A DNA stretch of 64,000 bases from Halobacteriovoraceae bacterium (GTDB taxonomy: Bacteria; Bdellovibrionota; Bacteriovoracia; Bacteriovoracales; Bacteriovoracaceae). Position numbers and translations under genes: made by a program. Below are positions 22,637 to 41,875 of this stretch, one piece after another. The notes beneath the pieces were generated by a model. It was not told the DNA's origin and made no database searches. It worked only from the letters and a program-made list of their open reading frames with translations. The stretch's first letter is position 1, and each line of letters starts with the position of its first letter. Location of the stretch: contig CAVRCF010000001.1 of the NCBI GenBank assembly GCA_963719505.1, positions 1,056,001 through 1,120,000 on the forward strand. Reading direction: 5' to 3'.

Positions 22637-25600
22637 TTATAAAACATAAAAGCTTATAATAGCTCCATTAAACTGACCGTCATTCCAAACTGGAGATCCA
22701 CTTACACAGATGGATACAGTTTTTCCATCACCCGTTTTAACGGTTATTTTTTGGTTACTTACATTTTCTTTATTATTGATGACCTTATATGTAACTAAGT
22801 CCTCTCTTTTAAGAAGCTCACCCTCAAGATCTTTTACTTCCCATTTAGGGTTATCAAAAGATCTTTGATAAATCTCATCCTTATCCATTTTTAGAGATTT
22901 TATGGCGAAGTCATTTGCGAACTCAATTGATCCCTCTTTGTCGAAGACAATCATAGGCATTGGGTTATTCTCAATGAGAGCTCTCAGAGTTTCCAGTTCT
23001 CTTTTTATTCTATCTTCATCTTTTTTCTCTTCTCGAGGTTTAAATAAGGTATATCTTATTCCAGATAAGCGGCCGGCATTATTGTAACGTCCGTTAGCGA
23101 TGAGAGTAACTTGAAGTTCCTCATCATTGTTGTCGAGTCTGTATGTCTCGCTTATGTAAGCTGGAAGCCCATTATCAATTTGCTTTCTAACAAGACCGAT
23201 ATCATTTTGGGCCTTTAATGGGATAAGAATTGACTCGTGAACTCCCAAGGCTTTATCCCTATCAATTTTAAAGAATCTCACTGAAGAATCAGGCCAATAG
23301 TCAATCCGTCCTTCTGGGTCTACACCATAAGTGATTTGATCTTCAGAGAGTAAAAACTTGAAAAGTAGGTCTTGAGATTCTCTGACTGCTTTAAGTTCAG
23401 AAATATCGATGACCATAACAACAACACCATCTTTAATTCCCTCATAAGACTCGTAAGGATGAATTTTTACGAGAGACCATAAATCAGTATTAATTTTAAT
23501 CTGCTTCTCTATTGGTTCTCTCTTTTCAATAACTTCTTTACAGTCATTGAAAAAATCCGCGTATATAGGTTTACTAAAATCTGAGATTTGCCTGCCGACA
23601 TCACCTTCGCGAAGTTTGGCGATTTCCATCATTCTTTTAGATACTTTTCTGATAACCATTGTTGAGTCTAAGAAGAGTGTCCCTATATGAGCTATCTCCA
23701 AGATTGTATCGAGATCTTTTCTTCCCTCAGAGATCTCATCAATCTTGTTCTGATACTCAGAGTTCATCGTATAAAGCTCTTCGTTTACTGACTGGAGCTC
23801 TTCGTTAACAGACTGAAGCTCTTCATTTGTCGTAACGAGTTCCTCATTTGAGCTTTGCAGCTCTTCATTAGATGACTCTAGGTTTTCAACGGTAAAGTTC
23901 AAGTCTTTTCTGCTTTGATCAAGCTCTTCTAAAAGTCCTTCGACAACATCTCCACTTGACTCAGTGTTTGTGGGTCTATCTTTATTTTCTTCTACGGGAG
24001 CTATTTGAATGAGAAAGATTTCTCCGCTGGCCTTCATGACTTTTTTTAGGGCAGAGACTCTTAAAAGTTGTCCGTTGAGCGATATGTTTGACTGGGCTTT
24101 GTGAGCATTTTCATCGACAGTTATTTGTGAGTTGCTAATCTTTTGAAATCGCTTCATTAAAAGTAAAACAGCTGTTTTTAACTCTGGTTTTAAGACCTCA
24201 TAAATCGTTTTTGACACAGATCCGGCTCTAAGTGTTGTGTAATGATTTACATCTCCAGCAATATGAAGAAGATCTCCATTGATATTAATCGCAAATGTTG
24301 GAGTTGATATTTCCTCTATAATTGCGTGCTCAATTGATGAGGATGATATGGCCATGGGTCTTTTAGAGTCACCATTTTGCTGTGTCGTCTTTGTTCTGAC
24401 TGATCGAGTTTGGATGACATCAAACATTCTTGATGAGGTGAGATTTGATACCTTTTTAAAAATTTTTGCTTTTTGATCTATCGTCTCTATACCTGGAGAG
24501 GTAGGTGCAGATTCACTACTTCCCAAAAAGAGATATCCATCTCTGAGCAGACTATGTTCTAAGATCATGACCGTCTCTTTTTGAGCTTCTTTGTCAAAGT
24601 AGATGGCACAGTTTCTAAAAGAGATGAGATGCATTCTTCCAAAAGGAGGGTCTGATAGTAAGTCGTGTTTTGAGAAAACGACCTTGTCGCGAATTGATTT
24701 TTTTATTCGAAAGCTACCACCAGAAATTTCTTCAAAATATCCAGCCCTATATCCTTCAGGAACATCTGAAAGAGCACTATTTGGATAGGTTGCATCTTGA
24801 GCTTTTGCAATGGCTCTTTCATCAATGTCTGAGCCGAATATTCGAAAATCTAGTGACGATTTTTCTTTTTTGATGGCTTCGGTTAGGAGAATCGCTATTG
24901 AGTAGGCTTCTTCTCCACTTGAGCATGCCGGCACCCACACTCTTAGTTTCTTATCAGAGATATCCATTTTGACTAATTTCTTTATCGCTTTCTCTACAAG
25001 GGCTTCAAAGAATTCTGGATCGCGGAAAAAAGACGTAACACCTATAAAAAAATCGTTCGCGAGATTTCTAGATTCAATAGGGTCAGTTTTAAGTCTCGCT
25101 AAGTAGTCCTCAATAGAACCAAGTCGGCTCAATGCAACTCTTTTTGCAATTCGTCTTTTGAGCGTTCCTTTTTTGTATCGAGTAAAATCAATGGAACAGG
25201 ATTCTGATATTTGTTTGATGATCTCTTCAAATGAATAATCTTTCTCTGAAACTTCTAATATTGCTTTTTTTGAATTTTTGCTTACTTCAATAAGCTCGAG
25301 TATTTCCTCGGGAAACTCATCTAGCGTTGTAACGATATCGGCGAGTTCGTTTTTAATAATAGCGGCAGGCATGCTTGCAAACTTTGCATCGTGAGGAGCT
25401 TGTGCCATGACAAAGCCACCCTCCTCTTTAATTGCCCTACAACCTCTTACCCCATCTGTCCCACTTCCAGACAAAATAACCGCAACAGCTTTCTCGCACT
25501 GATCTTTTGCGAGGGATTCTAGAAATATATCGATTGAGTGGAGGGGAGTTCTATCTTCAAATTCCCCGTACTTTGTTAATTTTATCTTGCTGTCTTCAAC

Positions 25601-25861
25601 TTCTAGCTTTGTTCCCGGAGGCGGTAGAAAGATTCTATTTGAGCTCAATGACATTCCCGTTTCGGCTTGGACGATTTCAATGTCAGTGAGGTTTTTTAGA
25701 ATGTCTGGCATATGCGAGCTATGGTTTGGAGATAAGTGCTGCATGATAATATAGCAACAATTGTCAGCCGGAAGTTTTCCAACAATGGACTTTAAAGCCT
25801 CCACTCCACCAGCGGAGCAACCAATTCCAACAACTACTTCAAAATGTCTATCTCTCGCCAT
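22637..25861 (-). CDS. CheB methylesterase / CheR methyltransferase fusion with coiled coil and PAS domains
   Basis: GCSAGG, MQHL and GSGTDG (CheB triad); PACSSGEEAYSI (CheR); NEELQS heptads; C-terminal PAS domains; no kinase domain. Confidence 0.92.
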   Translation of the reverse strand: MARDRHFEVVVGIGCSAGGVEALKSIVGKLPADNCCYIIMQHLSPNHSSHMPDILKNLTDIEIVQAETGMSLSSNRIFLPPPGTKLEVEDSKIKLTKYGEFEDRTPLHSIDIFLESLAKDQCEKAVAVILSGSGTDGVRGCRAIKEEGGFVMAQAPHDAKFASMPAAIIKNELADIVTTLDEFPEEILELIEVSKNSKKAILEVSEKDYSFEEIIKQISESCSIDFTRYKKGTLKRRIAKRVALSRLGSIEDYLARLKTDPIESRNLANDFFIGVTSFFRDPEFFEALVEKAIKKLVKMDISDKKLRVWVPACSSGEEAYSIAILLTEAIKKEKSSLDFRIFGSDIDERAIAKAQDATYPNSALSDVPEGYRAGYFEEISGGSFRIKKSIRDKVVFSKHDLLSDPPFGRMHLISFRNCAIYFDKEAQKETVMILEHSLLRDGYLFLGSSESAPTSPGIETIDQKAKIFKKVSNLTSSRMFDVIQTRSVRTKTTQQNGDSKRPMAISSSSIEHAIIEEISTPTFAININGDLLHIAGDVNHYTTLRAGSVSKTIYEVLKPELKTAVLLLMKRFQKISNSQITVDENAHKAQSNISLNGQLLRVSALKKVMKASGEIFLIQIAPVEENKDRPTNTESSGDVVEGLLEELDQSRKDLNFTVENLESSNEELQSSNEELVTTNEELQSVNEELQSVNEELYTMNSEYQNKIDEISEGRKDLDTILEIAHIGTLFLDSTMVIRKVSKRMMEIAKLREGDVGRQISDFSKPIYADFFNDCKEVIEKREPIEKQIKINTDLWSLVKIHPYESYEGIKDGVVVMVIDISELKAVRESQDLLFKFLLSEDQITYGVDPEGRIDYWPDSSVRFFKIDRDKALGVHESILIPLKAQNDIGLVRKQIDNGLPAYISETYRLDNNDEELQVTLIANGRYNNAGRLSGIRYTLFKPREEKKDEDRIKRELETLRALIENNPMPMIVFDKEGSIEFANDFAIKSLKMDKDEIYQRSFDNPKWEVKDLEGELLKREDLVTYKVINNKENVSNQKITVKTGDGKTVSICVSGSPVWNDGQFNGAIISFYVL

Positions 25862-26081
25862 GCGTTACCCTTGCCATCGACCATAAGTAAAGGACAATTA
25901 TAGTGCAGTTATCGCTCAATTTCTACCGAATGTTAGTAAATATATGGACTAAGTTTTCTGGCTTTAAAGATGAGGGGAGTTGCCACAAAGAACCTTTATT
26001 GGTAGCTATAGTGCTCTATGGTGCGAGTTAGTTCCTGTTGGTGCGCCGTGTAGATAGAACCGAAAACTTGAGGTTACATTT

Positions 26082-27594
26082 TTGAACGGTAATGAAGACA
26101 ATATATTCTTGAGTCGATTCTTAGAAGCTTTACCTATAAATACGTTTGAGGTGGATCCTACTGGTGAGTACAAGGCCCTTAAGGATACTAATGATGATCT
26201 ACTTGTCGAAGTAGATCAGAGAACGGGAAATTTCTGGTCTGATATCAATGACCAACTAAGCGAAACTTTGTGGAACCGATACAGGCACTCACAAAAAGAA
26301 TCAAGAGCAATTGAAGAAGAATTTAGTTTCTATAAAGCTGAAGGTGAAATCGTTTGGCTTAAGGTGACTATCGTCGCAGGTCACGAAATATCTTACCTCT
26401 CATACGAGAATATTACTGAGAAGAAAAAAGATTTAGCAAAAATCATGCGTGATGAAAGAATTTCGACTATCGGTATCCTAGCCGGAGGCTTGGCCCATCA
26501 ATACAACAATCTTCACCATGCCGTTATGGCCCATTGTTTTCGAAGCAAGGCAAGAAGATATTTCTGAAAATGCAGATCGAAAGCTTAACTCAGCAACTTC
26601 TATGTTAGAGCAAGGGTCAAATCTATCAAGAAGCTTAATGAGTCATTTGCGTGACTCTGATCAGGATTTCACCACAGAGATGAGCTCTGATGTCATGGAC
26701 AGAGTGGCCATGCTTGTTAAAGACGAGCTGATGAAACTTAACTGTAGACTAATTCTTGAGGGAGATTCATGGCCTATTATTTGTAAGCCAACTTCTTTAG
26801 ATCAAGTCTTGGTAAATCTAATTATAAATGGTGCTCATGCCTGTTATGAAACAGATGAGACTGGCGTAGTAAAAGTATCAATTTCTCAAGAAGAGGAAAG
26901 TGATTTTGTTCAAATTCGAGTCACCGATAATGGTGTCGGCATAGCAAATGAAAATATAAATAAGCTTTTTGCCCCACTTTTTTCGACTAAAGGTGTCTAT
27001 GCAACTAAGAGTTCTAAAGCGTCAAACCTCAAAGGGACAGGGCTGGGACTTCATTTAGCAAGACAGTTAGTGAGTGAGCAAAAAGGTGATTTAAGATTGG
27101 AGAGTACCTCTTCTTCTGGAACGACCTTCCTTATTAAAATCCCTCTAGGTGAGGTTGCTGACCTTGTTATAAATAATGGCGATCAATTACCTGAAAAAGT
27201 AGACGACAAAAAATTTAAAATTTATGTTGCTGATGATGCCAAAGAGAATAGGGCAATCCTTAAAGTGTATTTAAAAGACAAAGCTTTAAGTTTTATGGAA
27301 GCTGAGAACGGAGAGATAAATGAGGAAGAAATTTTAAAATTTAATCCTGATATTATTTTTGTTGATTGGCTTATGCCTAGGTTTAACGGCAACGATTTTT
27401 TAAGTTATATGGCTTCTAATGAAAAAATCTCACATTTAATGGAGAGAGTTGTTATTTTGTCTGGCTTGGATTTGTCGGATGAAATTTCGAGATGGAGCTC
27501 CAAGGTCAGAGCTGTAGCTAAAAAACCTATTTCTCAAACTAAGCTTATAGGGCTTCTCGAAGGACTAAATGTTAAACGCCACTATTTATCGTAG
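26082..27594 (+). CDS. Hybrid sensor histidine kinase / receiver, one frameshift (extra C near 26531)
   Basis: LAHQYNN H-box in the first ORF. NLIINGAHA, DNGVG, FSTK, GTGLGL and a receiver (DD...DWLMP...K) in the second ORF. Confidence 0.88.
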
Positions 27595-28003
27595 TCGCAT
27601 AAGGCGTGCTCTCAATGAGCAAGAACTTAATGAGCTCATTTCTGTAAGTAATAAAACAAATAAAAGACTTGGCCTGTCTGGGTTTCTTTGTCGTACTGAA
27701 AATTACTATGTTCAATACCTGGAAGGAGAAGATCTGGCCTTAAATCTTGTGCTAAAAAAGATTTTAAAAGATGATCGCCATTTTGATATCATCATCGAAG
27801 AGGTTCCTATTGATACGAGACGGTGCACTGATTGGGGAATGGTACAGGTGAGTGGTCTGTTGGAAGGTGGCATTACATTTGCCCATTTGATGGCAGATAT
27901 TTTAGGAAGGTCAAAGAGTGTGGAAAAGCTGGAACTAAATAAAAACATTATTAATCTCGTTGAAAAACAGATTGAATTATCATCTTTAGACAGTAGTTAT
28001 TGA
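27569..28003 (+). CDS. BLUF-domain blue-light photoreceptor
   Basis: IYRS (Tyr), N...GLSGFL, VQYLEG (Gln), DDRH and WGM. Confidence 0.9.
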   Translation: MLNATIYRSRIRRALNEQELNELISVSNKTNKRLGLSGFLCRTENYYVQYLEGEDLALNLVLKKILKDDRHFDIIIEEVPIDTRRCTDWGMVQVSGLLEGGITFAHLMADILGRSKSVEKLELNKNIINLVEKQIELSSLDSSY

Positions 28004-29181: not shown

Positions 29182-30171
29182 ATGAAGTCTATAGTTTTTC
29201 TTTTATTTGTCTTTTTGTCTTTCTCTTGCTCTAAGAGGGCAAAAGTTTTTGATTTTAAGGGCACGACCATGGGAACTTACTATTCTGTGAAGATTGCCAC
29301 TTCAAAGATTGATGAAGATCTTATGAGTAAGCAGATTGAAGTCGTTTTAAAAGAAGTGAATCAAGTCTTTTCAACCTATATAAAAGAGTCAGAGGTCTCT
29401 CGTCTCAACACTTACGCCCTAGATGGACCTGTAGAGATTACTCCTGTTATGAAGGAGTTGATTCTTTTATCAAAAAAAATTAGTAAAGAATCTGATGGCT
29501 ACTTTGATCCTACGGTAGGCCCGCTAGTAAATCTTTGGGGGTTTGGCCCATGATGGCAAAAGAAAGAAACCAACTGATGAAGACATTGAACAAGTGATGT
29601 CATCTATAGGGATTGATAATATATCAATTCAAGGCAATCAGTTATCCAAGCGATCAGCGAAAATTTATTTAGATTTTTCCTCTATTGCGAAAGGCCAAGG
29701 GGTTGATGATGTAGGGCTCGTTTTGGAGAGTAGGGGATTTAAAAACTACTTAGTTGAAATTGGTGGAGAAGTTCGTGCTAGAGGAAAGAAGCCCGACGGA
29801 AGTCTTTGGGCCATCGGAATTGAAAAGCCCTCTGAGAATTTGGGACAAACCATTCAAAAAGTTGTGAATTTAAATAATCAAAGCATTGCTACTAGTGGTA
29901 GCTATAGAAACTATCTAAAGTATGGAAATGACGTCTTTTCACATACCATTAGTCCAAAAACAGGACGGCCTATTCAGCATGAATTGGTCTCGGTGAGTGT
30001 GATAGCTGAAAACTGTGCTAAGGCCGACGGTTGGGCTACAGCTCTTATGGCCATGGGGCCTAAAAAGGGTTAGAAAAAGCAAATGAGCTTGGACTCAAAG
30101 CGTATTTTCTAGTAAAAGATAAAGAGAGTTTTAAAGAACTATCGACGACAAACTTTGGGAAGTCTTTATGA
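29182..30171 (+). CDS. apbE: FAD:protein FMN transferase ApbE (lipoprotein), frameshifts near 29551 and 30070
   Basis: [60 protein letters not shown]. The natural C-terminus continues in a shifted frame to TGA at 30171. Confidence 0.93.
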
Positions 30172-30365
30172 ATATAATGTTAATTACTGTTGCTGTTTTT
30201 GGAATCGCTTTTTTTGGTCTAGCGATTGGGGTTATCATTTCAAATCGAACAATCAAAGGTTCTTGTGGTGGCATTGCAAATCTAATGGGTGAAAGTGGTT
30301 GCGATATTTGTGAACTTAAAGATAAGTGCGAAAAATCTGGCAAAGAACTTTGCGAAGAAGGTTAA
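30168..30365 (+). CDS. nqrM: Na+-NQR maturation factor NqrM (DUF539)
   Basis: TM helix then IKGSCGGI...CDIC...C; follows apbE. Confidence 0.9.
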
Positions 30366-31432
30366 TAAGCATTTATTTCATAAGTTGAATCAAGCAGTCT
30401 TTTCGCTTCTACCCAACAACCTAAAACTTTTGATTCTCTCTTTTCAAAAGACTTTTTAGTACAGTCAGATCTCTTACCACTTTCTTTATTTTCACATAAA
30501 CATGTAATCGATTTATCGGGCCAATAGTCTTTCCCATAGCTATTTCTTACAAGAATTTCACAGCGATTTTGATGATTCCTAATCCCAACAATATTGGCAT
30601 AATGGGCTCCACACTTTGTAGAAAAAGATTTAAATATTCTAGGCATGAATCCAATTGGATCGGTTTTTAAAAATCCAGGGTCATAAGTAACATCAGGACA
30701 GTGACCAATAGAGAGAGTCTTGTGCTCGGAAAGTTTTGAGGTTATGACGTCTATAAGAACATCATTTGATTCTATACCCATGCCGTAGGATTTGAGGGAG
30801 GGCACAGAGTGACTAAGATTGTCTTCACAGCCATTAAAGACATGAGCTTTTAGAAAAGGGAAGAGTTTCAAATCTTTAGTCTTTCCCTTTATAGCACCAA
30901 GCACTGTTTCCACTTGAGTTCGATTCCAAGAATAGTCTTCAGAGCTTTTACTCAAACGGTTAAGAGTACTATTGATATTGTCTTGCCAAGAGTCTGAATC
31001 ATTTTTTGCTTTAAAAAATTCTTTATAAAGAAAGAAAAGCTTATCGTCAGTATAATTCACTCCAGACTTGAGCTTTGTTAATTTCTCATTGATAAAATTA
31101 ATATCGCAGACGCCATTTTTTTCAATGTCTTTATGGGCCCAAGTTAAAAATGAAAAATCTAGATTTTGTGGCTTCCAGTGGATGCGTCTATTCTTGTGAA
31201 TAAAGGCAATCCAGTAGGGATGAATAAAGTCTTTTGGATCGTCTTGTTCAAGGTTAAAAGTTGTACTGCTTGCATGAGCATAGCAGGTATTCATATCACC
31301 TTGATCTTTAATTCTTATAGAATTTAAATTTTCATTGAGGTCGAAAAGATTGATATCTGCACATAGCGTCGTCGTTCGATGCAATACCGTGGTATAAAAT
31401 AGTACTAGTAATAGAGTCGTGAATTTTTTCAT
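30362..31432 (-). CDS. Secreted papain-like (C1) cysteine peptidase
   Basis: Signal peptide; [14 protein letters not shown] (oxyanion Gln, catalytic Cys), AHYANIVG (His), LVRNSYG (Asn). Confidence 0.85.
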
Positions 31433-31486
31433 GACACTAGTCTAGGACGTGAAATTAAAAAATCAACCGAGTGTAAGACTCAGGAA

Positions 31487-32485
31487 TTAGATAGAGATGT
31501 TTAATGAACCAAAAATCGCAGTCTTATCAATGCTAACGTTTTCTACCGCAAAATTTACTCCGGATTCAACGGTGATTTGTTTCATAATATTATAGGCAAC
31601 TGACAGACTAGCGACGTCATCAAGGTTATTACTGAATCTATCGAGACTATTTACATCATCACCAGTTTGGCTCCAATCGAATTCAATACTGGACTTTAAT
31701 GTTGTATTATCAGTAATCATATAATTTAAGTATCCGCCGATAGCGGCAAATAAAGTTGTTCTCTTTATACCGGGTATTTTATCGACGCCCTCGCAAGTAA
31801 AACCTGGCTCTTTACACCAATCGGGATGGAAAGCACTCGTTTCATTTTTATTATAATAATCTCTTTGGACGCTAGCTCTAATCCCATGAAAGAGTCCAGG
31901 TACACTTGAGAAAATAGTAAGAGAGGGTTGTATTCCGAGTCCATATTGCATTTCTGCATTCTGGGACCCCTCTGTTGTAGGTCTTTCTACGAATGTATTA
32001 AAACTTAAACTAATCGAATTATTGGTATAAACACTTGGTATCCATAAAGAGACTCTATGATTATTGAATGAACGTCCATATTGTCTTTGGCCTTGGCCAC
32101 CACCATTGAATTTAAAGTTTATATTTTCATTGAGATTATCTTGATAAGTTAGTCCATATGAGAGAACCATATTTCTTGGAAGTCTATATCCAAGTTTAAA
32201 TGATTGAAAAACTTGGGTTGATCCAGTTGCGTCGAGTCTTTCACCGTTATCTGTTGTACCACCATCGAATCTATTATAGGTAGCGCCATCCTGATACTTA
32301 TTGGAAAGACTTCGTCCGACATACTGAACGAAGTAATTAAATGAAAAGTTCGATGCGACTTTTTTAAGAGTAGAAAAACTCTCATCTTTTTCCACTGTTG
32401 AGTTAAGCAGAGAGATATTAACGTTTGCCGAGAGACTTAGTGAAAATAATACGGCAAAGAGAAATGTCATTTTTAAATTAAACAT
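31487..32485 (-). CDS. Secreted protein, probable outer-membrane beta-barrel
   Basis: Signal peptide; alternating aromatic/hydrophobic strands; ends IFGSLNISI. Confidence 0.6.
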   Translation of the reverse strand: MFNLKMTFLFAVLFSLSLSANVNISLLNSTVEKDESFSTLKKVASNFSFNYFVQYVGRSLSNKYQDGATYNRFDGGTTDNGERLDATGSTQVFQSFKLGYRLPRNMVLSYGLTYQDNLNENINFKFNGGGQGQRQYGRSFNNHRVSLWIPSVYTNNSISLSFNTFVERPTTEGSQNAEMQYGLGIQPSLTIFSSVPGLFHGIRASVQRDYYNKNETSAFHPDWCKEPGFTCEGVDKIPGIKRTTLFAAIGGYLNYMITDNTTLKSSIEFDWSQTGDDVNSLDRFSNNLDDVASLSVAYNIMKQITVESGVNFAVENVSIDKTAIFGSLNISI

Positions 32486-32493
32486 TTAGCCTC

Positions 32494-34596
32494 CTATATC
32501 TGTTTCGTTGCTCTATCGTTTGTTCCCGCGACTTGAATCGTACTATTGAAAAGCTTATCTCTTTCAGACAAATAGTTTTTGGCATTATTGATAAGTCTTT
32601 CTCTAAGTACTGCTTCTTCATCGTTTTTCATATTCTTTTGAAATTCTTTTTTAATACTAACGTACTCAATTGTTAACATATGCATCATCGCTTCAAGAAG
32701 TTCATCGGTTTCACTGTTCGATGTTATAGCAGATGTCCCTTTATTATCTAAGTTAAATTTATAGGTCATGCTGTTTATATCTTCTCTTTTGGCAGAGTAG
32801 ATAGACTGAAGGGTCCAAAGAGCATTTTTTATTGACCAGTTATACGTTTGCAGTGCAAAAGATGAAGCCTCTTGCTTTTTATTTTGTTGAAGAAAGAGAA
32901 CTTCCCAGTGGTCTTTCATATAGCCACGAAAGCTATCTGTGTCAAAAAGATCATTAGAGGCAAAAAGTTTTGAATTACTTTTTAAGTTTTTCATCACACT
33001 TGCACGGCGCACTTTTGACTGACGGTAAAACTTTGCCAGCGCTTTAACTTTGTCGTGAGTTAGAGGAGTCTGAGAGAGATTTTTCTTCGACAGTTCAGTT
33101 GTAAGATCATCCATAAAAACGAATGCTCTACCAACATAGTAGTCTCTCTCTTTTTGTTCGTTTTGCTCATCTACAGACATATAAGGATGATCCAAGAAAA
33201 ACTGGGCCATTTTCTTCCAAATATAAACCTGCACTTCCTGTGTTCTCGTCACTTCTTTTTGAAGGAATGTTCTATATCTAATATCAAGATTCTTAAAGAA
33301 TTCTAAGTCCGATTTAACTTTACGAAGATATCTTTTCGTCTCTGCATAGGCGCTCTCTGCTGTTAAAGGAAAGTTAAACTGAGTTTCCATCTGTTCTAGG
33401 CGACCCATTCTTGCAGCAAAAACAAGATCGGACTCGTAGGCAATTTGCATCGCTTTGAAGTTTGTCATTCTTTGATCCCAAGAAATTTTCTCTAGGGGAA
33501 CAATCGAAGTAGACTTAGCCGAACTTACAGCTGATTGACCAGTTGATACTTGATCTTGAACTTTTTGCGTCTCGACAACTTCAGCTAATTTTTCCGTATT
33601 CTCATACGTAATTTCAGGTGTCGTCACACTTTCGACAGAATTAACAACTGAAAGGTAAGCATTTCGTACCTTTCCCACGGCCCACATTGCATGAGGGTTC
33701 ATCGGTTGGGTAATAAAATAAAATGTGAAAGGCCCGTATATAGCTAGGGCAACAGAGTATCCAAGATTTTCTTTAACTGTGCTAATAAACCAGAAAAACT
33801 TACCTAAGGTCCACTTATAGGTTAGCCCTTTAAGATTACTAAAAGGTCTCGCTTTAATTCTCGCTAGCTTGATAACGACATCTTTAGAGAGAATAGGAAG
33901 TGAATACTTTAGAGAGCTTAACTTATGAACTCTCTTTTTCGTCTCAATAATTTTCGATCTTACTTCCTTGAGAGAAGCGTAAATATTTTGGCGCTCAGTC
34001 CACGTTAAAACGGGGTCGGCTTCAATTCTATAGATTTCATTTTCTATGTTGACGACAGCATCATCCTTATTTCCTTTATCGATGGAAAGAGTCAGGTCAG
34101 GATCTTTGTAATATTTGTTTAAAAGTCCCTCAATAAGAACGATTCTTGCCGTCATGGAATTACCAGTTTTAGCTTTGTCGTACTCATTATTGATAATATT
34201 GTAGAGGTGATTGATAAAAGGGCTCAAAGGCTCCATATTGATAGAACTGTAATTAACCAGACCACAGTCTAGAGTTTTCGCTGAATAACTAAAGTTACCG
34301 TCAACGTCATAATAGTCATAGATTTCGTTGATCTCACCTTCAAGGTAGACGCGTTTATAGATAACATAGTTTCCAGATGTTAGTGAACCGATTTGTAATT
34401 GACCAATAAGAGTATCATCTACCCAATAATTGTGGCCCGAAAAACCGTTCGAATTATGAATGTCGAAAATCTGTAGATCACATAAATCCAGATCTCGTCC
34501 ACCTTTGATGGTTAATAGGTCGGCTAAGCGCTCATCCAGAGTCTTAGCCGACTTAATCACGAGGTCGGATATGTGAATATACGTTTGAGCACGCAT
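32494..34596 (-). CDS. Hypothetical membrane-anchored protein with large helical C-terminal domain
   Basis: Central hydrophobic segment (LGYSVALAIYGPFTFYFI), Ser/Thr-rich linker, helical C-terminal half. Confidence 0.75.
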   Translation of the reverse strand: MRAQTYIHISDLVIKSAKTLDERLADLLTIKGGRDLDLCDLQIFDIHNSNGFSGHNYWVDDTLIGQLQIGSLTSGNYVIYKRVYLEGEINEIYDYYDVDGNFSYSAKTLDCGLVNYSSINMEPLSPFINHLYNIINNEYDKAKTGNSMTARIVLIEGLLNKYYKDPDLTLSIDKGNKDDAVVNIENEIYRIEADPVLTWTERQNIYASLKEVRSKIIETKKRVHKLSSLKYSLPILSKDVVIKLARIKARPFSNLKGLTYKWTLGKFFWFISTVKENLGYSVALAIYGPFTFYFITQPMNPHAMWAVGKVRNAYLSVVNSVESVTTPEITYENTEKLAEVVETQKVQDQVSTGQSAVSSAKSTSIVPLEKISWDQRMTNFKAMQIAYESDLVFAARMGRLEQMETQFNFPLTAESAYAETKRYLRKVKSDLEFFKNLDIRYRTFLQKEVTRTQEVQVYIWKKMAQFFLDHPYMSVDEQNEQKERDYYVGRAFVFMDDLTTELSKKNLSQTPLTHDKVKALAKFYRQSKVRRASVMKNLKSNSKLFASNDLFDTDSFRGYMKDHWEVLFLQQNKKQEASSFALQTYNWSIKNALWTLQSIYSAKREDINSMTYKFNLDNKGTSAITSNSETDELLEAMMHMLTIEYVSIKKEFQKNMKNDEEAVLRERLINNAKNYLSERDKLFNSTIQVAGTNDRATKQI

Positions 34597-34638
34597 AGTC
34601 TCATTTCCTTTTATTTATTACGGCTTTCGCCGAATTAG

Positions 34639-37600
34639 TTACTGTTGTGTTTGGTTATAACTTCCACCAACGTTGATTGTTGCAACAGTCGGTTTTAGTT
34701 TTAAATTTTCAAAGTCTCTTTCTGCTCTATGAAAACTAACACCATGATACTGATGAGTTGCTATGATTCTTAAAGCTTCCCAGTCAGCTGTTGCCGAGCG
34801 AACAGCTTTCATCACAAGTCCTCTGTATTCATTGATTTGCGATTTATTGGCTGCTGGCATTGCACTCATCACTGCGTCTAGATTTATCTCCAAGCCCAGT
34901 TCAGTTGCAAAAGTGATATTTTTTGCATTTTCCAAAGCCGGAATAACTTCCTGAAGAGCTTTAACTCTCGTTGCAGCAGCATTTGGCATCATGTAGCCAA
35001 AGAGAGATCCGTATTTATTTAGTTTTTTCTCCCAAGTGAGATCACCGCGCTTAAGAGACATTCTTAACTCTCTTATGACCATCGACTCTGGTGATTGACC
35101 AAGCTTATCAGCATAGCCGTAAAGAGGTTTTCTTTCCGCTTTCATATCGAAGTTTGAGTCAGCATCAAGAGTTCTTTTATTTGCTCCTAAAAAGTTTCCA
35201 TAATAGTTAAGAAACTTAGCCGCTGAGAGTCCACCATCTTTAAGGGCACGCTTTTCAGCGAGCATACTGTGCTTAATTTGCTGATAGTGCACAAGCTCAT
35301 GACCAGCTGTATAGATCATGGTGAACGGATCGAGCTCTGATCTTAGCCAAACATAAATATCACTGTTTGAATAAAGACCATGAGATGTTTTCTTTTTAGC
35401 AAAGCATTCACCAGCATGTTCTCTATGACAAAGCTTGTGGTTTCTTAGAGACTTAGAGTCTAAGATTGAGATTCTGTCTGGCTTCAATTCATTTGTGAAA
35501 ACATCAGAAACTGATATCTTTCTCTCTTTCGCAAAATTTTCAATATTAAATTTTGCGTATGGAGCGATATCCAAAAGTTCAATTAAATTCTCTTTTGATG
35601 TATAGCTCGAGTTTAAAAGATCTTGATATCTTGCAATCTTTGGATGCTTTTTAAAGTGTTCAGCTCTTTTCTTCGCCAGGTAGACCATCTTGTCTTTCTT
35701 TCCAAGAAGTCTTGCGTTTTGCTCTACTGAGATCCAGTCTTTTCTTGCAGCTTTCAACTCATCAGAGATATAGTCAGAATCTGTGAGAAGAGTTCCAGAG
35801 CGCATTTCACTTTGAGTGGCAATGGCGATCTTCTTATCGGTATCTCTTGAACCAAGGTAGAGAGTCTCATACTCTAGTTCATTAAAGTCTGTCTCTTTTC
35901 TAAAAACGTTTGCAAACTCAGCCGTCTTTGGAGACTTGCTTAGTCTTTGAATAGACCCCTCACATAATTGCTCAAGAAGGTCTGTAACCACTTTCTTAGA
36001 ACGATTTGATAAAATCGATTCAGGGAATTCTAACTTGGCAGACTTATCAATTGAACGAACGAGTTTGTTGAGTTCATTTCGAACATTTTTATCAGAAATA
36101 TTTAATTTTTTAATTTCAGCTTTAAGCTCCATGACCATGACGATGTCTAGCGCTCTTTGCTCTTCACTATAATAGGTTGAAGAAACGTCAGTGTTGAGAA
36201 TACTAATATTATCAATGATATCTCTCACGTTAACTTTAGACAGTCTAAGCTCATGTTTTTGAAGAAGGCTAACGATATCAGCCTGATATTTATTGATTTG
36301 AACGTAGTATTTCGCAACAGCCTTTTTATCAATTTTTGCTTCAAGAAGGTCGATGATTTTATAAACACTTTCAATAACTCTTGGGTTCAAATAAGATAAA
36401 ACTTCTTTAAGCTGAATTTTCATCCCAATAGAAAGCCCTAAAAGTTGATAAGCTGAAGTCGTCTCTTTCTCTAATAGAGTTGTCGCTTGTCTTAGCATTC
36501 TTCCAATTTGAACAAGAGAAGCTGCTACAAACACTGGTAGTTCATGTTTCATTTGTTTTGGAACTTTGGGCTTTGCCAATTCTCTTGGCGTCACAGAGTC
36601 TTTATTGTTTGTGTCGTCCACGATAACAAATGGAGCATAACCACCACCTGCTGATGTGTTGACGATTGAACTCATTGCTCCTCTTTCTTGGGGAGCATAT
36701 CTAACAAGTGCATTGTGAGAGATTCTTGGCTTCGCATTTTTTCCACCACCAAAGAAAACCCACATTCTTATATCTGCTGCTAAGTTTGCGAATCGGTATC
36801 CGTCTTTTCTTTCAACAGCGACTGGAATTCTACCAATCTTAACAAGTTGTTGGTAAGCATATTGACTTGGGTTCTTTTTAATCTCGGCCAGAATCTCTTT
36901 TTTTACCGTCTTTGAAAGAGTTTTTAAAATATAGATTCCTTGTCCACCTGCAGAGTCTGGTGCTTTGACAACCCACTCGTCAGGGTTGTTTGCAATAATC
37001 TCAGCTGACTTTCTCGTAGGAGGTAAAGTTTGTGGAGGAAGAATTTTTACACCTTTAGGATTCAGACCCGCACTTTCTATATCGTTTGCGAAAAACTTTG
37101 GAGCGTAGTGAGTTAGAGTTGCAAGGATAATTTTGTTATCCATAATTCTATTCAGACCACCCATATAAAGTCTTCTATTTAAAACAGCATCAATAGCACC
37201 TGGTACAGTATACGCAGACTGAAGTGGAACTGGTTTTCCATTTTCATCTTTTACGATTGAAGCTCTTCCATTTTTACCAATTTTTAAAGCATCTCTTAAA
37301 TAAATATTTTCACCCGAGTCTGGGTCTCTTAAGATAAGACCTTTTTCTGGATTAAAGAGGGCTGAGTCAGCGTTTACTCTTGAGTAGATAGCCGTGACGA
37401 TAGGATTGTTTTCACCAATAGTTCTTAGGCGAATATAACCGTCTTTATCTTGGTATAGTTGGTCGGGATCTGTATATAGAAGTCCTGAGTAAGCCGCGAG
37501 CTGATGAATCTCAGGTGCAGCACCATTTTGTCCTCCCGGTGGAAGAATAATTTGGACACCGTCAGTGATTCCAGTCCAAGATTCACCAAGAGATTTGTAG

Positions 37601-38370
37601 GTCTCTCCTAAAATCTTAAAGTGATCGTTTGGCATTACTTTTCCAAGAGAGTCTAAGATCTCTGGATTTTGCTTGTAAATTCCCTCAAGCATATTCATAT
37701 TGTTTGAAGCTCCTGAAGGGGAGCCAGCATTTATTTCTAGAATTCTAAACGGAAGTCCAGGAAGTTCATTGTCTTTATTCTTTGCGATGAGTTTTGGAAC
37801 GTCTGCAGTTTGCTGAAGATAATCTTCCACTAAGACTAAATCTAATCCCACGTTGTCCAAGAACGGATAGTCTTTCATATTTTTGTGATGAAGCTGTGGA
37901 TAATAAGACGATGAATCCTTGATGGACTCGATAAAGATCTTACGAACGGCTTCAGGAAGTGATTGAACGAAGGCCGAGCTCTCAAGAGACTCAGACCCAT
38001 AAATATCTTGTAATACTGATCTTAAAGAAATCATAAGTCTTTGAGCGGCTTCTTCAACATCGTTAAAAAGTGATTTTTGAACGGGAACAACAGTGGTTGT
38101 ACAAGGTACAACGAAGGTTTTATATCCTTTTGCGGTTTTTTTAGAGAAGGTTAAGTCTCTGTTTTTTAGAAACTTAGTGAGCTTTTTACTTTCTTGAAAA
38201 TGAGTGCTCACCTCATGATCTAAAATTCTTTTGGCCACTGGCTTGGCGTGTAGGTAGGCTGAGCGCAGCTTTTTAGCACTAAAAAGATAATTTGAGACTA
38301 CGACCTCGGCATTCCCAATGAAGCCTAAGTTTGGATTGTACTCTTTTCGACTTTTTTTCGTCTGTTTCAC
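34639..38370 (-). CDS. Circularly permuted type 2 ATP-grasp amidoligase fused to a C-terminal HEXXH (zincin-like) domain
   Basis: GLDLV...FRILEINAGSPSGAS, IYSRV, WVVKAPDSAGGQGIYI, DIRMWV and IVNTSAGGG match the CP-ATP-grasp motif order. AGHELVH lies near residue 1050. GTG start with AGGTGA RBS. Confidence 0.85.
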   Translation of the reverse strand: MKQTKKSRKEYNPNLGFIGNAEVVVSNYLFSAKKLRSAYLHAKPVAKRILDHEVSTHFQESKKLTKFLKNRDLTFSKKTAKGYKTFVVPCTTTVVPVQKSLFNDVEEAAQRLMISLRSVLQDIYGSESLESSAFVQSLPEAVRKIFIESIKDSSSYYPQLHHKNMKDYPFLDNVGLDLVLVEDYLQQTADVPKLIAKNKDNELPGLPFRILEINAGSPSGASNNMNMLEGIYKQNPEILDSLGKVMPNDHFKILGETYKSLGESWTGITDGVQIILPPGGQNGAAPEIHQLAAYSGLLYTDPDQLYQDKDGYIRLRTIGENNPIVTAIYSRVNADSALFNPEKGLILRDPDSGENIYLRDALKIGKNGRASIVKDENGKPVPLQSAYTVPGAIDAVLNRRLYMGGLNRIMDNKIILATLTHYAPKFFANDIESAGLNPKGVKILPPQTLPPTRKSAEIIANNPDEWVVKAPDSAGGQGIYILKTLSKTVKKEILAEIKKNPSQYAYQQLVKIGRIPVAVERKDGYRFANLAADIRMWVFFGGGKNAKPRISHNALVRYAPQERGAMSSIVNTSAGGGYAPFVIVDDTNNKDSVTPRELAKPKVPKQMKHELPVFVAASLVQIGRMLRQATTLLEKETTSAYQLLGLSIGMKIQLKEVLSYLNPRVIESVYKIIDLLEAKIDKKAVAKYYVQINKYQADIVSLLQKHELRLSKVNVRDIIDNISILNTDVSSTYYSEEQRALDIVMVMELKAEIKKLNISDKNVRNELNKLVRSIDKSAKLEFPESILSNRSKKVVTDLLEQLCEGSIQRLSKSPKTAEFANVFRKETDFNELEYETLYLGSRDTDKKIAIATQSEMRSGTLLTDSDYISDELKAARKDWISVEQNARLLGKKDKMVYLAKKRAEHFKKHPKIARYQDLLNSSYTSKENLIELLDIAPYAKFNIENFAKERKISVSDVFTNELKPDRISILDSKSLRNHKLCHREHAGECFAKKKTSHGLYSNSDIYVWLRSELDPFTMIYTAGHELVHYQQIKHSMLAEKRALKDGGLSAAKFLNYYGNFLGANKRTLDADSNFDMKAERKPLYGYADKLGQSPESMVIRELRMSLKRGDLTWEKKLNKYGSLFGYMMPNAAATRVKALQEVIPALENAKNITFATELGLEINLDAVMSAMPAANKSQINEYRGLVMKAVRSATADWEALRIIATHQYHGVSFHRAERDFENLKLKPTVATINVGGSYNQTQQ

Positions 38371-38601
38371 GTTTTCACCTCGGATTAATTAAGTCTTTGT
38401 TGAATCCTTCTACAAAATCTGACTATAATAGTATGATAACTATACACCTTGATGCTATGCGTTGCAAACACTTTTTACGCAATTCGGTAAAAACTGTCCA
38501 GATTAAGTTAATCTTTAAATTTATTGAATTTTCCTGTATTATTTACATACGTTAAATCCACATCCAAGTGGTTGTTATTATGTAGTTGAAATGGAGTTGC
38601 T

Positions 38602-39270
38602 ATGGTTGAAGTTAAATCAGTGTATGTTATTGGGAATGAGCAGCAAAATAGGGAGTCTATTGTAGATTCTTTATCGAAAGCGGGCTATCAAGTGCGAGGG
38701 TTTGAAAGCTCTCAAGATTATTACAAGAATAAGGATGATAACTTTCATGGGTTATACATCATCGACTGGAGTCTTCCAGACGAACCTGGAATAGAGATTG
38801 TCTCTAACATCAGAAAAAAAGACGGAATTTCACCAATTTTTATGCTTTCTAAGTTTACGGAAAATCAGGATGTTCTAGAGGGTCTAACTCGTGGAGCTGA
38901 CGATTACATAAAGAAACCGTATTTTCTTGATGAAATAATTCAAAAGGCAAAAAATAGTTTGAAAAGACTCTCTTTGATTAATGCAGGTGAGGAATCAGAT
39001 GGAAAAATTCGACTTCTGCCTGAAGCAAGCTCATTTTTGAAGAATAATTTTACCATCTCTTTAACTAAACGAGAGTATATTATTTTTAGTTATCTTTACG
39101 AAAAGTTAGAAAAGCCTGTGTCTCGAGAGGAACTAATATCTCAATTTTCTGAAGAGAAAATGACTGACAGAAATATTGACGTGCATATCTTTTCTCTTAG
39201 GAAGAAGATAAAGCCAGCAAGTATTTTAGTTGAGACTGTTTGGGGCATGGGCTACAAGCTCAAAATCTAG
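38602..39270 (+). CDS. OmpR/PhoB-family response regulator
   Basis: IIDWSLPD, GADDYIKKP, LTKRE...IDVHIFSLRKK...TVWGMGY. Confidence 0.93.
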   Translation: MVEVKSVYVIGNEQQNRESIVDSLSKAGYQVRGFESSQDYYKNKDDNFHGLYIIDWSLPDEPGIEIVSNIRKKDGISPIFMLSKFTENQDVLEGLTRGADDYIKKPYFLDEIIQKAKNSLKRLSLINAGEESDGKIRLLPEASSFLKNNFTISLTKREYIIFSYLYEKLEKPVSREELISQFSEEKMTDRNIDVHIFSLRKKIKPASILVETVWGMGYKLKI

Positions 39271-40529
39271 AAATACATTCTAAATTCAACCTCATATCTA
39301 TCTACTTTGGCCGTGTTAGTTCCCTCTAGCATGGTCTGGTAAATAAATTTTACTGCCGCAGGTAGAACGAACTTCTTTTGCTGGTAAAGGCCTACCGTTG
39401 TGAATTCACTCGTAAGTCTTACATTATGGGTCTCTGAACCAGTGCTTGCTGCTAGGTAGTTCTCTGAGTAAGAGTAGTCTGTATTTCTCGCTGTGTACTG
39501 TGCTTCATCAATTGACTCATACTCGTAAGCTGCATTAAAGAGAATCCAGTCGTTAACATAGTAATCTGTTGAGAGATGAAAAAGACTCTTATTTCCCAGC
39601 TTCTCTTTGTAGCTTTGCTTCTCATCTCCAAAGTTTACATCAGCGCTGTAAGGAACACGGAGACTCTTATCTGTAGCAAACTGATAAGTATAGCGATAGA
39701 AAGAATTGAAAACAAATTTACTTGATAGGTGGTAGCTTCCTCCAAACTCAGTAAAGATGTCCCATTGTCCGTCACCAAAATTGATATCTTGAATAATATC
39801 TGGATCGTCTGTTCTCCCCGTAGGAGCAACTGTTCCACCACTTAAAAGTAAGCCGTATTTATTTGTCGTTAGAAAGTTGTACATAATTCCAAGCTCAACA
39901 TCTCCAAGCCCTTCACCTTGCCAGTCACCAACTTCATCGTAGCCAAGCCCGTTGACAACTAAGCTTTGAAGAAATCCACTATCGACATCTAATTTATCTG
40001 AGTATTGATCTACAAATGTTCCGATGGCTTGGGCAAAATCGTCATTGGTATTGTCTTGAAGATTATTCGCTATAGTGTCGTAACTATTAGACTTGGTTCT
40101 TTTGTAGTTCATTTTTACATTGGCTTTATAGATCGGCATAATCATATAGGCTGTCACTTTATTAGTAACACCGTAAGCAAATCCATACCCATCAACTTCA
40201 ACATCAGCTTTAGCGTCGATTTTGTACTCACCAAGATTTAGGTTCTCGTATGCCTTTGGGTAGGGCTTCAGAAGGGCGAGAGCGGTCTGAATTGTCTCAT
40301 TTTCGATGGACTCAAGAAAATCTACATTGGCTTCAATTTGATAGGATAATGGGGATTCGTTACTCGTTTTATTATAAGTTGAATCGACTTGGGATTTTAC
40401 ATTTCTGTAAACTCCAAGCCTTACACCCTTAGGTAAAGTCTTGTAATACTGAGCGAATGCCATGTTTGATAAAAATAGGGCTCCTAAAAAAATTAATGAT
40501 TTTTTGTTTTTCACTTTCCATCTCTCCAA
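39267..40529 (-). CDS. Probable outer-membrane beta-barrel protein (MetA-pathway / transporter-like)
   Basis: Signal peptide; GLGDVELG, APTG and FGDGQWD motifs; C-terminal Phe (EFRMYF). Confidence 0.65.
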   Translation of the reverse strand: MERWKVKNKKSLIFLGALFLSNMAFAQYYKTLPKGVRLGVYRNVKSQVDSTYNKTSNESPLSYQIEANVDFLESIENETIQTALALLKPYPKAYENLNLGEYKIDAKADVEVDGYGFAYGVTNKVTAYMIMPIYKANVKMNYKRTKSNSYDTIANNLQDNTNDDFAQAIGTFVDQYSDKLDVDSGFLQSLVVNGLGYDEVGDWQGEGLGDVELGIMYNFLTTNKYGLLLSGGTVAPTGRTDDPDIIQDINFGDGQWDIFTEFGGSYHLSSKFVFNSFYRYTYQFATDKSLRVPYSADVNFGDEKQSYKEKLGNKSLFHLSTDYYVNDWILFNAAYEYESIDEAQYTARNTDYSYSENYLAASTGSETHNVRLTSEFTTVGLYQQKKFVLPAAVKFIYQTMLEGTNTAKVDRYEVEFRMYF

Positions 40530-40711: not shown

Positions 40712-41875
40712 TTGAAATATTTATTATCCACACTTTTAATTTTATCTTTCTTAGTATCTTGCAAAGAAGACAGTAATATTAAGCCTTTAGCGAGTGCTCA
40801 AAAGCTCTCAGAACGATTTGACTCCAAATCCACGGGAAGTAAAATTGTGACTTTACCTATAAAGATTCCAATGACTCAAAATACTTTATCTAGGTACACT
40901 GCAGATGATATTCTTAATCCCGTTGATAATACTGAAATAGGAGACCTTCCCGAGTCTCAAGTTGGTTTTCTTAAAAGATTAAAAACAGCTTTTAAGTTAA
41001 AGCTCTATAATCTAGGTTTAAGGCTAGGGGTTCAAAACCGTTACCGTTTTTCAACCAACTACGATGGGTTCCCTGAAATTGATACAGACTATATCAAGTC
41101 AGTAAAAATAAAAAAATTATTTTTTGCTATCGAGCCCTGTGATCCTAATGATTCAACTTGTAAGGTCGCTGATGAGAATAGCCCTTCAACACTTTTTTTC
41201 TTAGAAAAGTTTTTCTTAAATATTTCGACGATTCAAAACCCTGAGGATTTGGCTTTTCTCGATATACCTCAGCCTGAGAGTTTAAGCTCAGAATCTTTTA
41301 AAGAGTATGTTAACAAAGCCTGGGGAAAACAGCCTACAGACTTTATGGACTATGTCAGCAAAGAGACTGGTGAAGTGAAGAATGAAGTTTTTTATGATTT
41401 GAATGTGGCAAAATTAGATAACAAAGAGAACAGAAAAAGACTAAGAGAGCTCAATCAAAGAAGAAATGTTAGAGACAGTGGAAAAAACTTTATCGCAAGA
41501 ATTGACTCTGAAAGTATTCTGGAGACAAAGAGCTTTTTTAAAAGAAAAGCCTTCAAGTCCTCTGTAAAAGATTTAACATTCTTAGGGAAAAGTCTTTTTA
41601 TCGAACTTCACTCAGAGAAGCAAAGAGATCTCTTTTTCAAAACAATAACGGAACAAGAAGAATCCATAAGAGATATCGGCGTTTATGAAATAGAGGGTTG
41701 TACGCTTTTGACGTGTACTGATGTTAAGGTTAACCCTATCAATCTTGTTCCCATGTTAAAAAAGTCGACAAATATTAAGTTTGATACTTACTTCTCTGTT
41801 AATAATCTTGATCCAAATGACTTTCGCTACAGTGGATATCTTGAAATTGAAGTGAAGTTGGAGTTACCTCTGTAA
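40712..41875 (+). CDS. Hypothetical lipoprotein
   Basis: GGAGG RBS, TTG start, lipobox FLVSC. Confidence 0.75.
   Translation: MKYLLSTLLILSFLVSCKEDSNIKPLASAQKLSERFDSKSTGSKIVTLPIKIPMTQNTLSRYTADDILNPVDNTEIGDLPESQVGFLKRLKTAFKLKLYNLGLRLGVQNRYRFSTNYDGFPEIDTDYIKSVKIKKLFFAIEPCDPNDSTCKVADENSPSTLFFLEKFFLNISTIQNPEDLAFLDIPQPESLSSESFKEYVNKAWGKQPTDFMDYVSKETGEVKNEVFYDLNVAKLDNKENRKRLRELNQRRNVRDSGKNFIARIDSESILETKSFFKRKAFKSSVKDLTFLGKSLFIELHSEKQRDLFFKTITEQEESIRDIGVYEIEGCTLLTCTDVKVNPINLVPMLKKSTNIKFDTYFSVNNLDPNDFRYSGYLEIEVKLELPL

Follow-up and report, generated by a model that had tools for sequence, protein, structure and literature searches.

Operons built around a circularly permuted (CP) type-2 ATP-grasp protein have reportedly been proposed (Iyer et al., 2009) to serve as peptide-ligation or tagging systems, and no experimental characterisation of any of them was found in those parts of the open-access literature covered by our search. 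In the plasmid-borne loci taken here as canonical (Limimaricola, L083; Paracoccus, L084; Sphingomonas, L085; Deinococcus, L087), the CP type-2 ATP-grasp gene is followed in order by genes for an alpha-E protein, a transglutaminase-family protein and a peptidase; one canonical locus, from Caballeronia (L086), additionally includes a gene for a 'putative zinc-binding metallopeptidase', and another, from Acidithiobacillus caldus (L089), an outer-membrane barrel gene. The present study concerns a differently composed locus of four genes, designated G1 to G4, located within a 64,000-nucleotide stretch of DNA from a Halobacteriovoraceae bacterium (contig CAVRCF010000001.1, positions 1,056,001 to 1,120,000), the whole of which is referred to as the window. 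With a probability that we place at about 0.5, the sequence comparisons suggest that G1, G2 and G3 form a Bacteriovoracia-specific, envelope-linked operon that is a variant of the CP ATP-grasp peptide-ligation systems and works by the mechanism proposed below.

Three other groups of enzymes are relevant as comparators. RimK and LysX are ATP-grasp enzymes that act on protein C-termini. Glutathionylspermidine synthetase/amidase is bifunctional, and combines an ATP-grasp-type synthetase with a CHAP cysteine amidase. PgsB and CapB, the ligases of the poly-gamma-glutamate pgs and cap loci, are Mur-ligase-like and hence belong to another ligase superfamily than G1. No description of a G1-G2-G3 module was found in the open-access literature to the extent that it was searched, topics such as DUF6782 and predator ATP-grasp or transglutaminase proteins included.

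The list of open reading frames (ORFs; Table 1) agrees exactly with the original prediction of four co-oriented genes, which are separated by gaps of 42 bp (G1/G2), 8 bp (G2/G3) and 54 bp (G3/G4). All four are real genes, each with homologues or orthologues by comparison with which its product is full length. The G+C content across the region is even (0.36–0.39), and so gives no sign of a foreign origin. Comparison of the four products with the PADLOC anti-phage defence models returned no match at E ≤ 0.01, and a scan of the same products against NCBIfam yielded nothing meaningful.

Conservation of the gene neighbourhood was established by scanning one genome per species, which gave 80 loci, almost all of them labelled Bacteriovoracia and one of them (L057) in the complete genome of Peredibacter sp. 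HCB2-198. Counts were restricted to loci with room for the gene in question, taken as at least 2300 bp downstream of G1 for G2 and at least 3500 bp for G3. On this basis G2 adjoined G1 in 60 of 60 loci, lying downstream of it in the same orientation in 57 and divergently upstream in three, the latter arrangement being found in L047 also. G3 was present in 53 of 56 loci, 41 of them recognised by tblastn with the G3 of the window as query and a further 12 by clustering; no G3-family ORF was present in L049, L076 or L078. Between the G2 stop and the G3 start there is an overlap of 4 bp in 30 loci and of 1 bp in six, where the window instead has its 8-bp gap, and in the rearranged loci L047, L061, L063 and L064 the G2 and G3 genes remain paired beside G1. 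By way of contrast, G4 was found in none of the 80 loci, the closest relatives included (L065 and L080, with 75% and 78% G1 identity), and in L065 it is apbE that directly follows G3. The conserved unit is G1-G2-G3, and G4 is an accessory gene outside it. The earlier grouping of a ligase with a 700-residue protein and a signal-peptide protein is thereby borne out, while the four-gene synthesis-export-release line of the original prediction, which had been made to depend on co-localisation of all four genes in other genomes, fails for G4 because the latter is absent from all 80 loci.

Two peculiarities of individual loci may be recorded at this point. In the closest genome locus, L080 (10001–15801), G1 is spread over four ORFs and G2 over two, which represents either assembly frameshifts or a decaying copy. 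Typical Bacteriovoracia G1 modules also occur in metagenome-assembled genomes labelled Flavobacteriaceae and Nonlabens (L011 and L012), and these contigs are probably mis-binned, since L011 falls within the marine Bacteriovoracia clade on a G1 tree built with FastTree.

G1 is a CP type-2 ATP-grasp protein and, on the strength of its sequence relationships, a predicted amide ligase. In the Pfam scan it matched PF14403 at 60.4 bits (cut-off 32; E = 2e-16) and PF04174 at 32.8 bits (cut-off 23.1; E = 5e-8), the former result upholding the CP ATP-grasp identity proposed earlier. A PDB sequence search returned 3n6x as the only solved relative (E = 1.1e-5, or 1.2e-4 with a profile), a structure deposited under the title 'putative glutathionylspermidine synthase'. 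As aligned to 3n6x, residues E212/N214, K469, G475–G478, D533–R535 and N571–G577 are invariant among 13 G1 sequences of 53–100% identity, and we take these blocks to be nucleotide- or metal-binding. A hydrophobicity scan found neither a signal peptide nor a transmembrane segment in G1. The protein search, in which 8000 candidates were scored, gave at least 300 matches to G1; among the matches listed, 120 homologues exhibited 53–100% identity, lengths of 1161–1290 residues and query coverage of 87–100%, and the named sources were Bacteriovoracaceae or Halobacteriovoraceae. The source records label the family as uncharacterised CP ATP-grasp protein or as hypothetical, and nothing further.

The C-terminal half of G1 combines a helical middle domain with a zincin-like domain (Table 1). 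An alignment of 41 sequences covering residues 590–1243, with identity down to 32%, confirmed H1024, E1025, H1028, Q1031 and E1039 as invariant. DUF6782, a putative metallopeptidase family, was matched by 38 of these 41 C-terminal halves below its own cut-off (best E = 7.6e-5), and Peptidase_M78 by four of them. AlphaFold2 modelled residues 590–1243 as one confident body (predicted local distance difference test score (pLDDT) 89.2; predicted template modelling score 0.89), in which a helical part of ~350 residues is followed first by three beta-strands and then by the HExxH helix. The C-terminal tail ...YNQTQQ is invariant in the 13-sequence alignment and invariant or nearly so in the 41-sequence alignment; a cytoplasmic enzyme would not usually be expected to have a C-terminus conserved to this degree. 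A word-based search for stand-alone forms of the C-terminal half (350–1159 residues) returned ten matches, all of them fragments of G1 orthologues. Two possible relationships were rejected by profile comparison: the zincin-like domain is not a recognisable relative of the Caballeronia metallopeptidase (hhalign probability 0.09%), and G2 is not an internal paralogue of the G1 C-terminal half (probability 0.3%).

G2 is an orphan. No family was assigned to it in Pfam, where 35 G2 proteins were scanned, or in NCBIfam; a 35-sequence G2 profile had no match among PDB sequences, an Atlas search for look-alikes gave no usable match, and Foldseek comparison of the whole model with the PDB found nothing at E ≤ 0.001, a result in which the multi-domain query may mask domain-level matches. 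A G2 profile run against 1.84 billion representatives gave 89 matches, all of them family members or fragments, with no outside relatives. In the AlphaFold2 model (pLDDT 80.8), long helices run through residues 251–325 at low confidence. The sole hydrophobic segment (278–298) has a favourable Wimley-White octanol value of -8.1 kcal/mol and is kept across the family, and the block of residues ~278–310 that includes it, situated between two folded domains, is the most conserved in the protein (87% mean column conservation). These data are consistent with G2 being, probably, a single-pass inner-membrane protein. A prediction of the complex between G2 (366–700) and G3 (23–332) gave a score of 0.00, which speaks neither for nor against binding.

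The N-terminus of G3 is hydrophobic (Kyte-Doolittle 1.83 over 19 residues), and a signal peptide is also present in the aligned orthologues; read in this way from hydrophobicity and alignment rather than with a dedicated predictor, the signal peptide assigned to G3 earlier is retained. Among 33 G3 orthologues, 23 end in Phe, the copy in the window ending in Ile, and there are weak Pfam matches to the barrel families Phenol_MetA_deg (3/33; best E = 3.7e-4), DUF2490 (3/33) and Toluene_X (1/33). A script for beta-strand periodicity did not separate G3 from controls, and comparison of the G3 profile with PDB sequences gave spurious matches only, to designed pentatricopeptide repeat (PPR) proteins. 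It is on the C-terminal Phe and the weak family matches that the earlier beta-barrel-like description may be kept in part, and they suggest that G3 is probably an outer-membrane beta-barrel.

Set against the canonical systems, the module shares their ligase family, PF14403, with G1 above the cut-off, and shares their logic of a ligase and a hydrolase joined, in relatives of the module, by a transglutaminase-type thiol enzyme. It differs in that the hydrolase is fused to the ligase, in that G1 and G2 lack any detectable alpha-E domain, and in that the canonical systems have no counterpart of G2 or G3. Pfam detected alpha-E in none of G1 to G4, the 41 G1 C-terminal halves, the 35 G2 proteins and the rest of the 64-kb window, and the possibility of an alpha-E domain in disguise was rejected by hhalign, comparison with a 9-sequence alignment of plasmid alpha-E proteins giving a probability of 0.08% for the G1 C-terminal half and for G2 alike (0.15% with a single alpha-E sequence). 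Nor was a Transglut_core partner present within the window, and the earlier statement that alpha-E and transglutaminase partners are not recognisable in it is accordingly supported for alpha-E and Transglut_core. The A. caldus plasmid locus (L089, 4401–5465), in which a CP ATP-grasp/alpha-E pair is followed by the outer-membrane beta-barrel gene and an APC permease, is a second case of an ATP-grasp system beside an outer-membrane protein. A relationship of G3 to the A. caldus barrel was considered and rejected (hhalign probability 0.4%).

Elsewhere in the lineage the module is accompanied by enzymes of defined families. The gene cluster found downstream of G3 in the freshwater clade (C4) is TGase_elicitor, with 21 of 21 tested members above the Pfam cut-off, and clusters C17 and C47 are Gln_deamidase_2, that is protein-glutaminase-like (17 of 17 above cut-off). 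The Gln_deamidase_2 gene is placed divergently from G1, directly after G3 (L009, L010) or at the head of the G2-G3 operon (L047, L061, L063). Genes for a pyroglutamyl peptidase and a YkuD-type transpeptidase are often found nearby as well. The transglutaminase, glutaminase and pyroglutamyl-peptidase neighbours have, as read from their sequences, signal-peptide-like N-termini, a further difference from the Transglut_core proteins of the canonical loci being the families themselves. Of the freshwater-clade loci with full flanks, 20 of 22 contain a transglutaminase or glutaminase gene, as do five of nine deep-branch loci; on the tree no major G1 clade is without such neighbours, although the three-member subclade of the window itself has none. 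A transglutaminase-type partner therefore exists, which speaks in part for the original interpretation, but it is of a different family and lies outside the window.

In the window the place downstream of G3 is occupied by G4, for which assignment as a divergent papain/C1-like thiol enzyme, secreted or lipoprotein-like, is supported by its sequence relatives. Its family consists of 25 proteins, in all of which Q44, C50, H277 and N297 are invariant, and these Gln, Cys, His and Asn residues keep the papain order. Profile matches in the PDB to cathepsin K, procerain and ervatamin B, although sub-threshold, fell on the Cys and His-Asn motifs, and the Atlas look-alikes (0.93–0.96) were Bdellovibrionota clusters named or partly annotated as papain or C1, among them clusters with Peptidase_C1 in 12% to 100% of their proteins. 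Of the 25 proteins of the G4 family itself, one matched Peptidase_C1 (E = 0.011) and not one reached its Pfam cut-off, and the Cys-to-His spacing of 227 residues is longer than that of papain. The earlier papain-like designation is sustained by the invariant residues and by the look-alikes. Downstream, the G4 stop overlaps by 4 bp a convergent nqrM gene (30168–30365, plus strand; 65 residues; NqrM match E = 6.4e-11). The hairpin just after the G3 stop, being weak, would make read-through into G4 possible; 16 of 200 shuffled sequences fold as well, and co-transcription of G4 is not decided by it. The contigs that carry three of the G4 homologues agree in length with contigs bearing G1 homologues (22611, 14970 and 138011 bp), so that G4 may be linked to G1 in some close relatives.

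The mechanism that we propose starts from G1 as a cytoplasmic bifunctional enzyme, the N-terminal ATP-grasp domain of which would form an amide (peptide or isopeptide) bond via an acyl-phosphate, while the C-terminal HExxH zincin-like domain would hydrolyse an amide, so that one product or tag is both made by the enzyme and trimmed or released by it; the underlying logic would be that of a synthetase/amidase fusion in which both activities meet on one substrate. G2, with a cytoplasmic N-domain, a single pass of the inner membrane and a large helical C-domain, and G3, as obligate partners of G1, may tie this chemistry to the envelope, either by conveying the product outwards or by serving themselves as targets of G1. 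An adjacent OmpR-type regulator, joined in the freshwater clade by a kinase, probably controls the operon. The slot beside the module is filled by genes for lineage-specific thiol enzymes with signal-peptide-like N-termini, of the transglutaminase-elicitor and protein-glutaminase types together with a pyroglutamyl peptidase in most freshwater relatives, and by the C1 papain-like G4 in the window. The accessory enzymes of other clades have peptide glutamine or pyroglutamate as their targets, and for this reason the substrate is expected to contain Gln or Glu. A fuller version of this scheme can be drawn as a trans-envelope machine, in which G1 builds or primes a Gln/Glu peptide, perhaps on its own ...YNQTQQ tail as carrier, G2 and a G3 barrel hand it across the envelope, and the secreted transglutaminase, protein-glutaminase and pyroglutamyl peptidase (here the C1 peptidase) act on it at the surface of predator or prey by cross-linking, deamidation or trimming; in this complete form we regard it as distinctly unlikely.

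A number of results weigh against the proposed envelope-linked ligation operon. The zincin-like domain of G1 reaches the cut-off of no curated peptidase family in Pfam, and Foldseek comparison of the 590–1243 model with the PDB found no match at E ≤ 0.001, a negative in which the multi-domain query may mask domain matches (the top row was the M32 carboxypeptidase 3hq2, E = 0.16, TM-score 0.11). The earlier description of G1 as a ligase-peptidase fusion is consequently secure for the CP ATP-grasp part and fair for the peptidase in the sense of a zincin motif, the HExxH being invariant and DUF6782 matched only below its cut-off, which falls short of family membership. For G2, the large helical domain described earlier is confirmed by the AlphaFold2 model, whereas the central transmembrane segment, favourable on the octanol scale, is marginal on that of Kyte and Doolittle (maximum 1.28 over 19 residues), and the flanking Lys plus Arg residues (4 versus 2) do not fix a topology. 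Were G2 soluble, G3 would be the only remaining tie to the envelope, and a single-segment protein without an ATPase is in any case no obvious translocator. The transglutaminase and glutaminase neighbours are rare in the marine clade to which the window belongs (two of 21 loci; one of ten with full flanks), and their presence throughout the freshwater clade could be in part inherited synteny. Finally, profile comparison of G4 with the TGase_elicitor and Gln_deamidase_2 neighbours gave hhalign probabilities of 0.4% and 1.1%; in view of this lack of similarity, G4 can be said to occupy an equivalent slot by position but by nothing else.

The chief rival to that operon holds that G1 is a protein-modifying enzyme, which would work in the cytoplasm to add an amino acid or peptide to G2, pre-G3 or its own invariant ...YNQTQQ tail, or to remove one from them, with G2 and G3 as substrates or effectors rather than a conduit. 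The position of the most conserved G2 block between folded domains and the near-invariance of the G1 tail over 41 sequences would both suit such a role, as would the tagging function proposed for the canonical systems and the action of RimK and LysX on protein C-termini, but the signal-peptide-like N-termini of the accessory enzymes imply that their substrate should be outside the cytoplasm, and overall we judge this reading unlikely. Rather less weight still is given to G1 as a small-molecule synthetase/amidase that makes and breaks a cytoplasmic amide in the manner of the glutathionylspermidine enzyme, with G2 and G3 merely sensing or transporting. The title of 3n6x points in this direction, as does the union of an ATP-dependent amide ligase and an amide hydrolase in one polypeptide, which is the architecture of the bifunctional enzyme. 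Yet the hydrolase of G1 is zincin-like and not a CHAP amidase, the domain order is different, the 350-residue helical insert and the two obligate envelope partners are without counterpart in glutathionylspermidine metabolism, and the accessory enzymes linked to the module have glutamine in proteins or peptides as their target; taken together, these features make the small-molecule reading improbable.

The four-gene line of the original prediction, in which the product of the cytoplasmic ligase would be a poly-amino acid or isopeptide, exported by G2 and G3 and released or processed by an extracellular G4, was conceived by analogy with cap/pgs loci, and has in common with them the notion that the product of an amide ligase is modified extracellularly by a hydrolase. 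The co-orientation and short spacing of the genes, the weakness of the hairpin before G4 and the equal-sized contigs bearing G4 and G1 homologues leave some room for it. Opposed to these are the absence of G4 from the 80 loci and the placing of apbE after G3 in L065, such that the extracellular peptidase is not conserved with the module; moreover, no PgsB/CapB-type Pfam family was matched by any of G1 to G4 and a polytopic membrane segment occurs in none, G2 having at most one hydrophobic segment. The analogy with poly-gamma-glutamate synthesis is on these grounds unsupported, and the four-gene line as a whole appears highly improbable. There is, lastly, the suggestion that G1 stands beside G2-G3 through inherited gene order without any common function. 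The 80 loci all belong to a single class-level lineage, and shared ancestry must inflate the counts; nevertheless, the adjacency survives both the rearrangement of L047, L061, L063 and L064, where G2-G3 is divergent and upstream, and a fall in G1 identity to 42% over which the flanking genes differ completely between clades, and the 4-bp overlap of G2 and G3 recurs in 30 loci. Mere inheritance of order would, on this evidence, be a very remote explanation.

Further features of the G1-G2-G3 operon and its surroundings are collected in Table 1. Both promoter-like hexamers upstream of G1, together with a GTAAAAA box still further upstream, show conservation in aligned G1-regulator intergenic regions from 13 marine-clade loci, and the G1 start is preceded at a distance of 5 nt by a ribosome-binding site (GAGGTG). 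Among loci with full flanks, nine of ten from the marine clade and all 22 from the freshwater clade have beside the module a regulator belonging to the same cluster as the divergent OmpR-family gene, and in 21 of these 22 freshwater loci a HAMP histidine kinase gene lies directly upstream of the regulator and co-oriented with it.

Table 1. Position of the four genes, their protein domains and motifs, and the adjacent regulatory features (nucleotide coordinates are those of the window; residue numbers are given with each domain)
Feature	Position	Strand	Description or evidence
G1	34639-38370	minus	ORF of 1243 residues, GTG start
G1 residues 1-589	36604-38370	minus	CP type-2 ATP-grasp ligase domain; Pfam, alignment to 3n6x
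G1 residues ~590-960	35491-36603	minus	all-helical middle domain without detectable relatives; AlphaFold2, Pfam, hhalign
G1 residues ~961-1243	34642-35490	minus	zincin-like domain; AlphaFold2 model, 41-sequence alignment
G1 HExxH (H1024, E1025, H1028)	35287-35301	minus	invariant in alignment
G1 tail ...YNQTQQ, residues 1237-1243	34642-34662	minus	near-invariant
G2	32494-34596	minus	ORF of 700 residues
G2 residues 1-250		minus	alpha/beta domain; AlphaFold2, alignments
G2 residues 278-298	33703-33765	minus	hydrophobic helix; AlphaFold2, alignments
G2 residues 325-372		minus	disordered linker; AlphaFold2, alignments
G2 residues 373-683		minus	helical domain; AlphaFold2, alignments
G3	31487-32485	minus	ORF of 332 residues
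Hairpin and T-run just after G3 stop	31467-31483	minus	weak, terminator-like; -5.6 kcal/mol, z = -1.58
G4	30362-31432	minus	ORF of 356 residues
Promoter-like site upstream of G1	38439-38467	minus	TTGCAA, 17 nt, TATAGT; conserved hexamers
OmpR-family response regulator, divergent from G1	38602-39270	plus	Pfam

Beyond the regulator lie two genes whose products match no Pfam family and which are kept beside the module in the marine clade only. One (39267–40529, minus strand) codes for a 420-residue protein with a signal-peptide-like N-terminus and a C-terminal ...RMYF that looks like an outer-membrane protein, the other (40712–41875, plus strand) for a 387-residue protein with a lipobox-like LVSC. 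On the opposite flank, marine relatives have apbE and the nqr operon directly after G3, at the point where the window has G4 inserted. In the window a block of signalling genes (22637–28003) separates nqrF from apbE; it comprises a 1074-residue CheB-CheR fusion with PAS, a hybrid histidine kinase/receiver and a BLUF blue-light sensor, and has no counterpart in the related loci. Within the window nqrB is split into three pieces, and nqrF and apbE into two each (18102–19297, 21570–22564 and 29182–30073), splits that look like sequencing-error frameshifts or decay.

For the Bacteriovoracia, the comparisons describe a lineage with a differently wired CP ATP-grasp system, in which the hydrolase is fused to the ligase, unrelated helical domains take the place of alpha-E, and two obligate envelope partners and a dedicated regulator are added, with many relatives further adding Gln-directed enzymes of known chemistry and signal-peptide-like N-termini. 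This wiring and these enzymes together narrow the likely substrate to a Gln- or Glu-containing peptide outside the cytoplasm. Cultivable predators provide a testable handle, since Peredibacter sp. HCB2-198 has the module, and if the link to the envelope is true, G1-G2-G3 would represent a new bacterial coupling of cytoplasmic ATP-dependent peptide ligation to surface chemistry.

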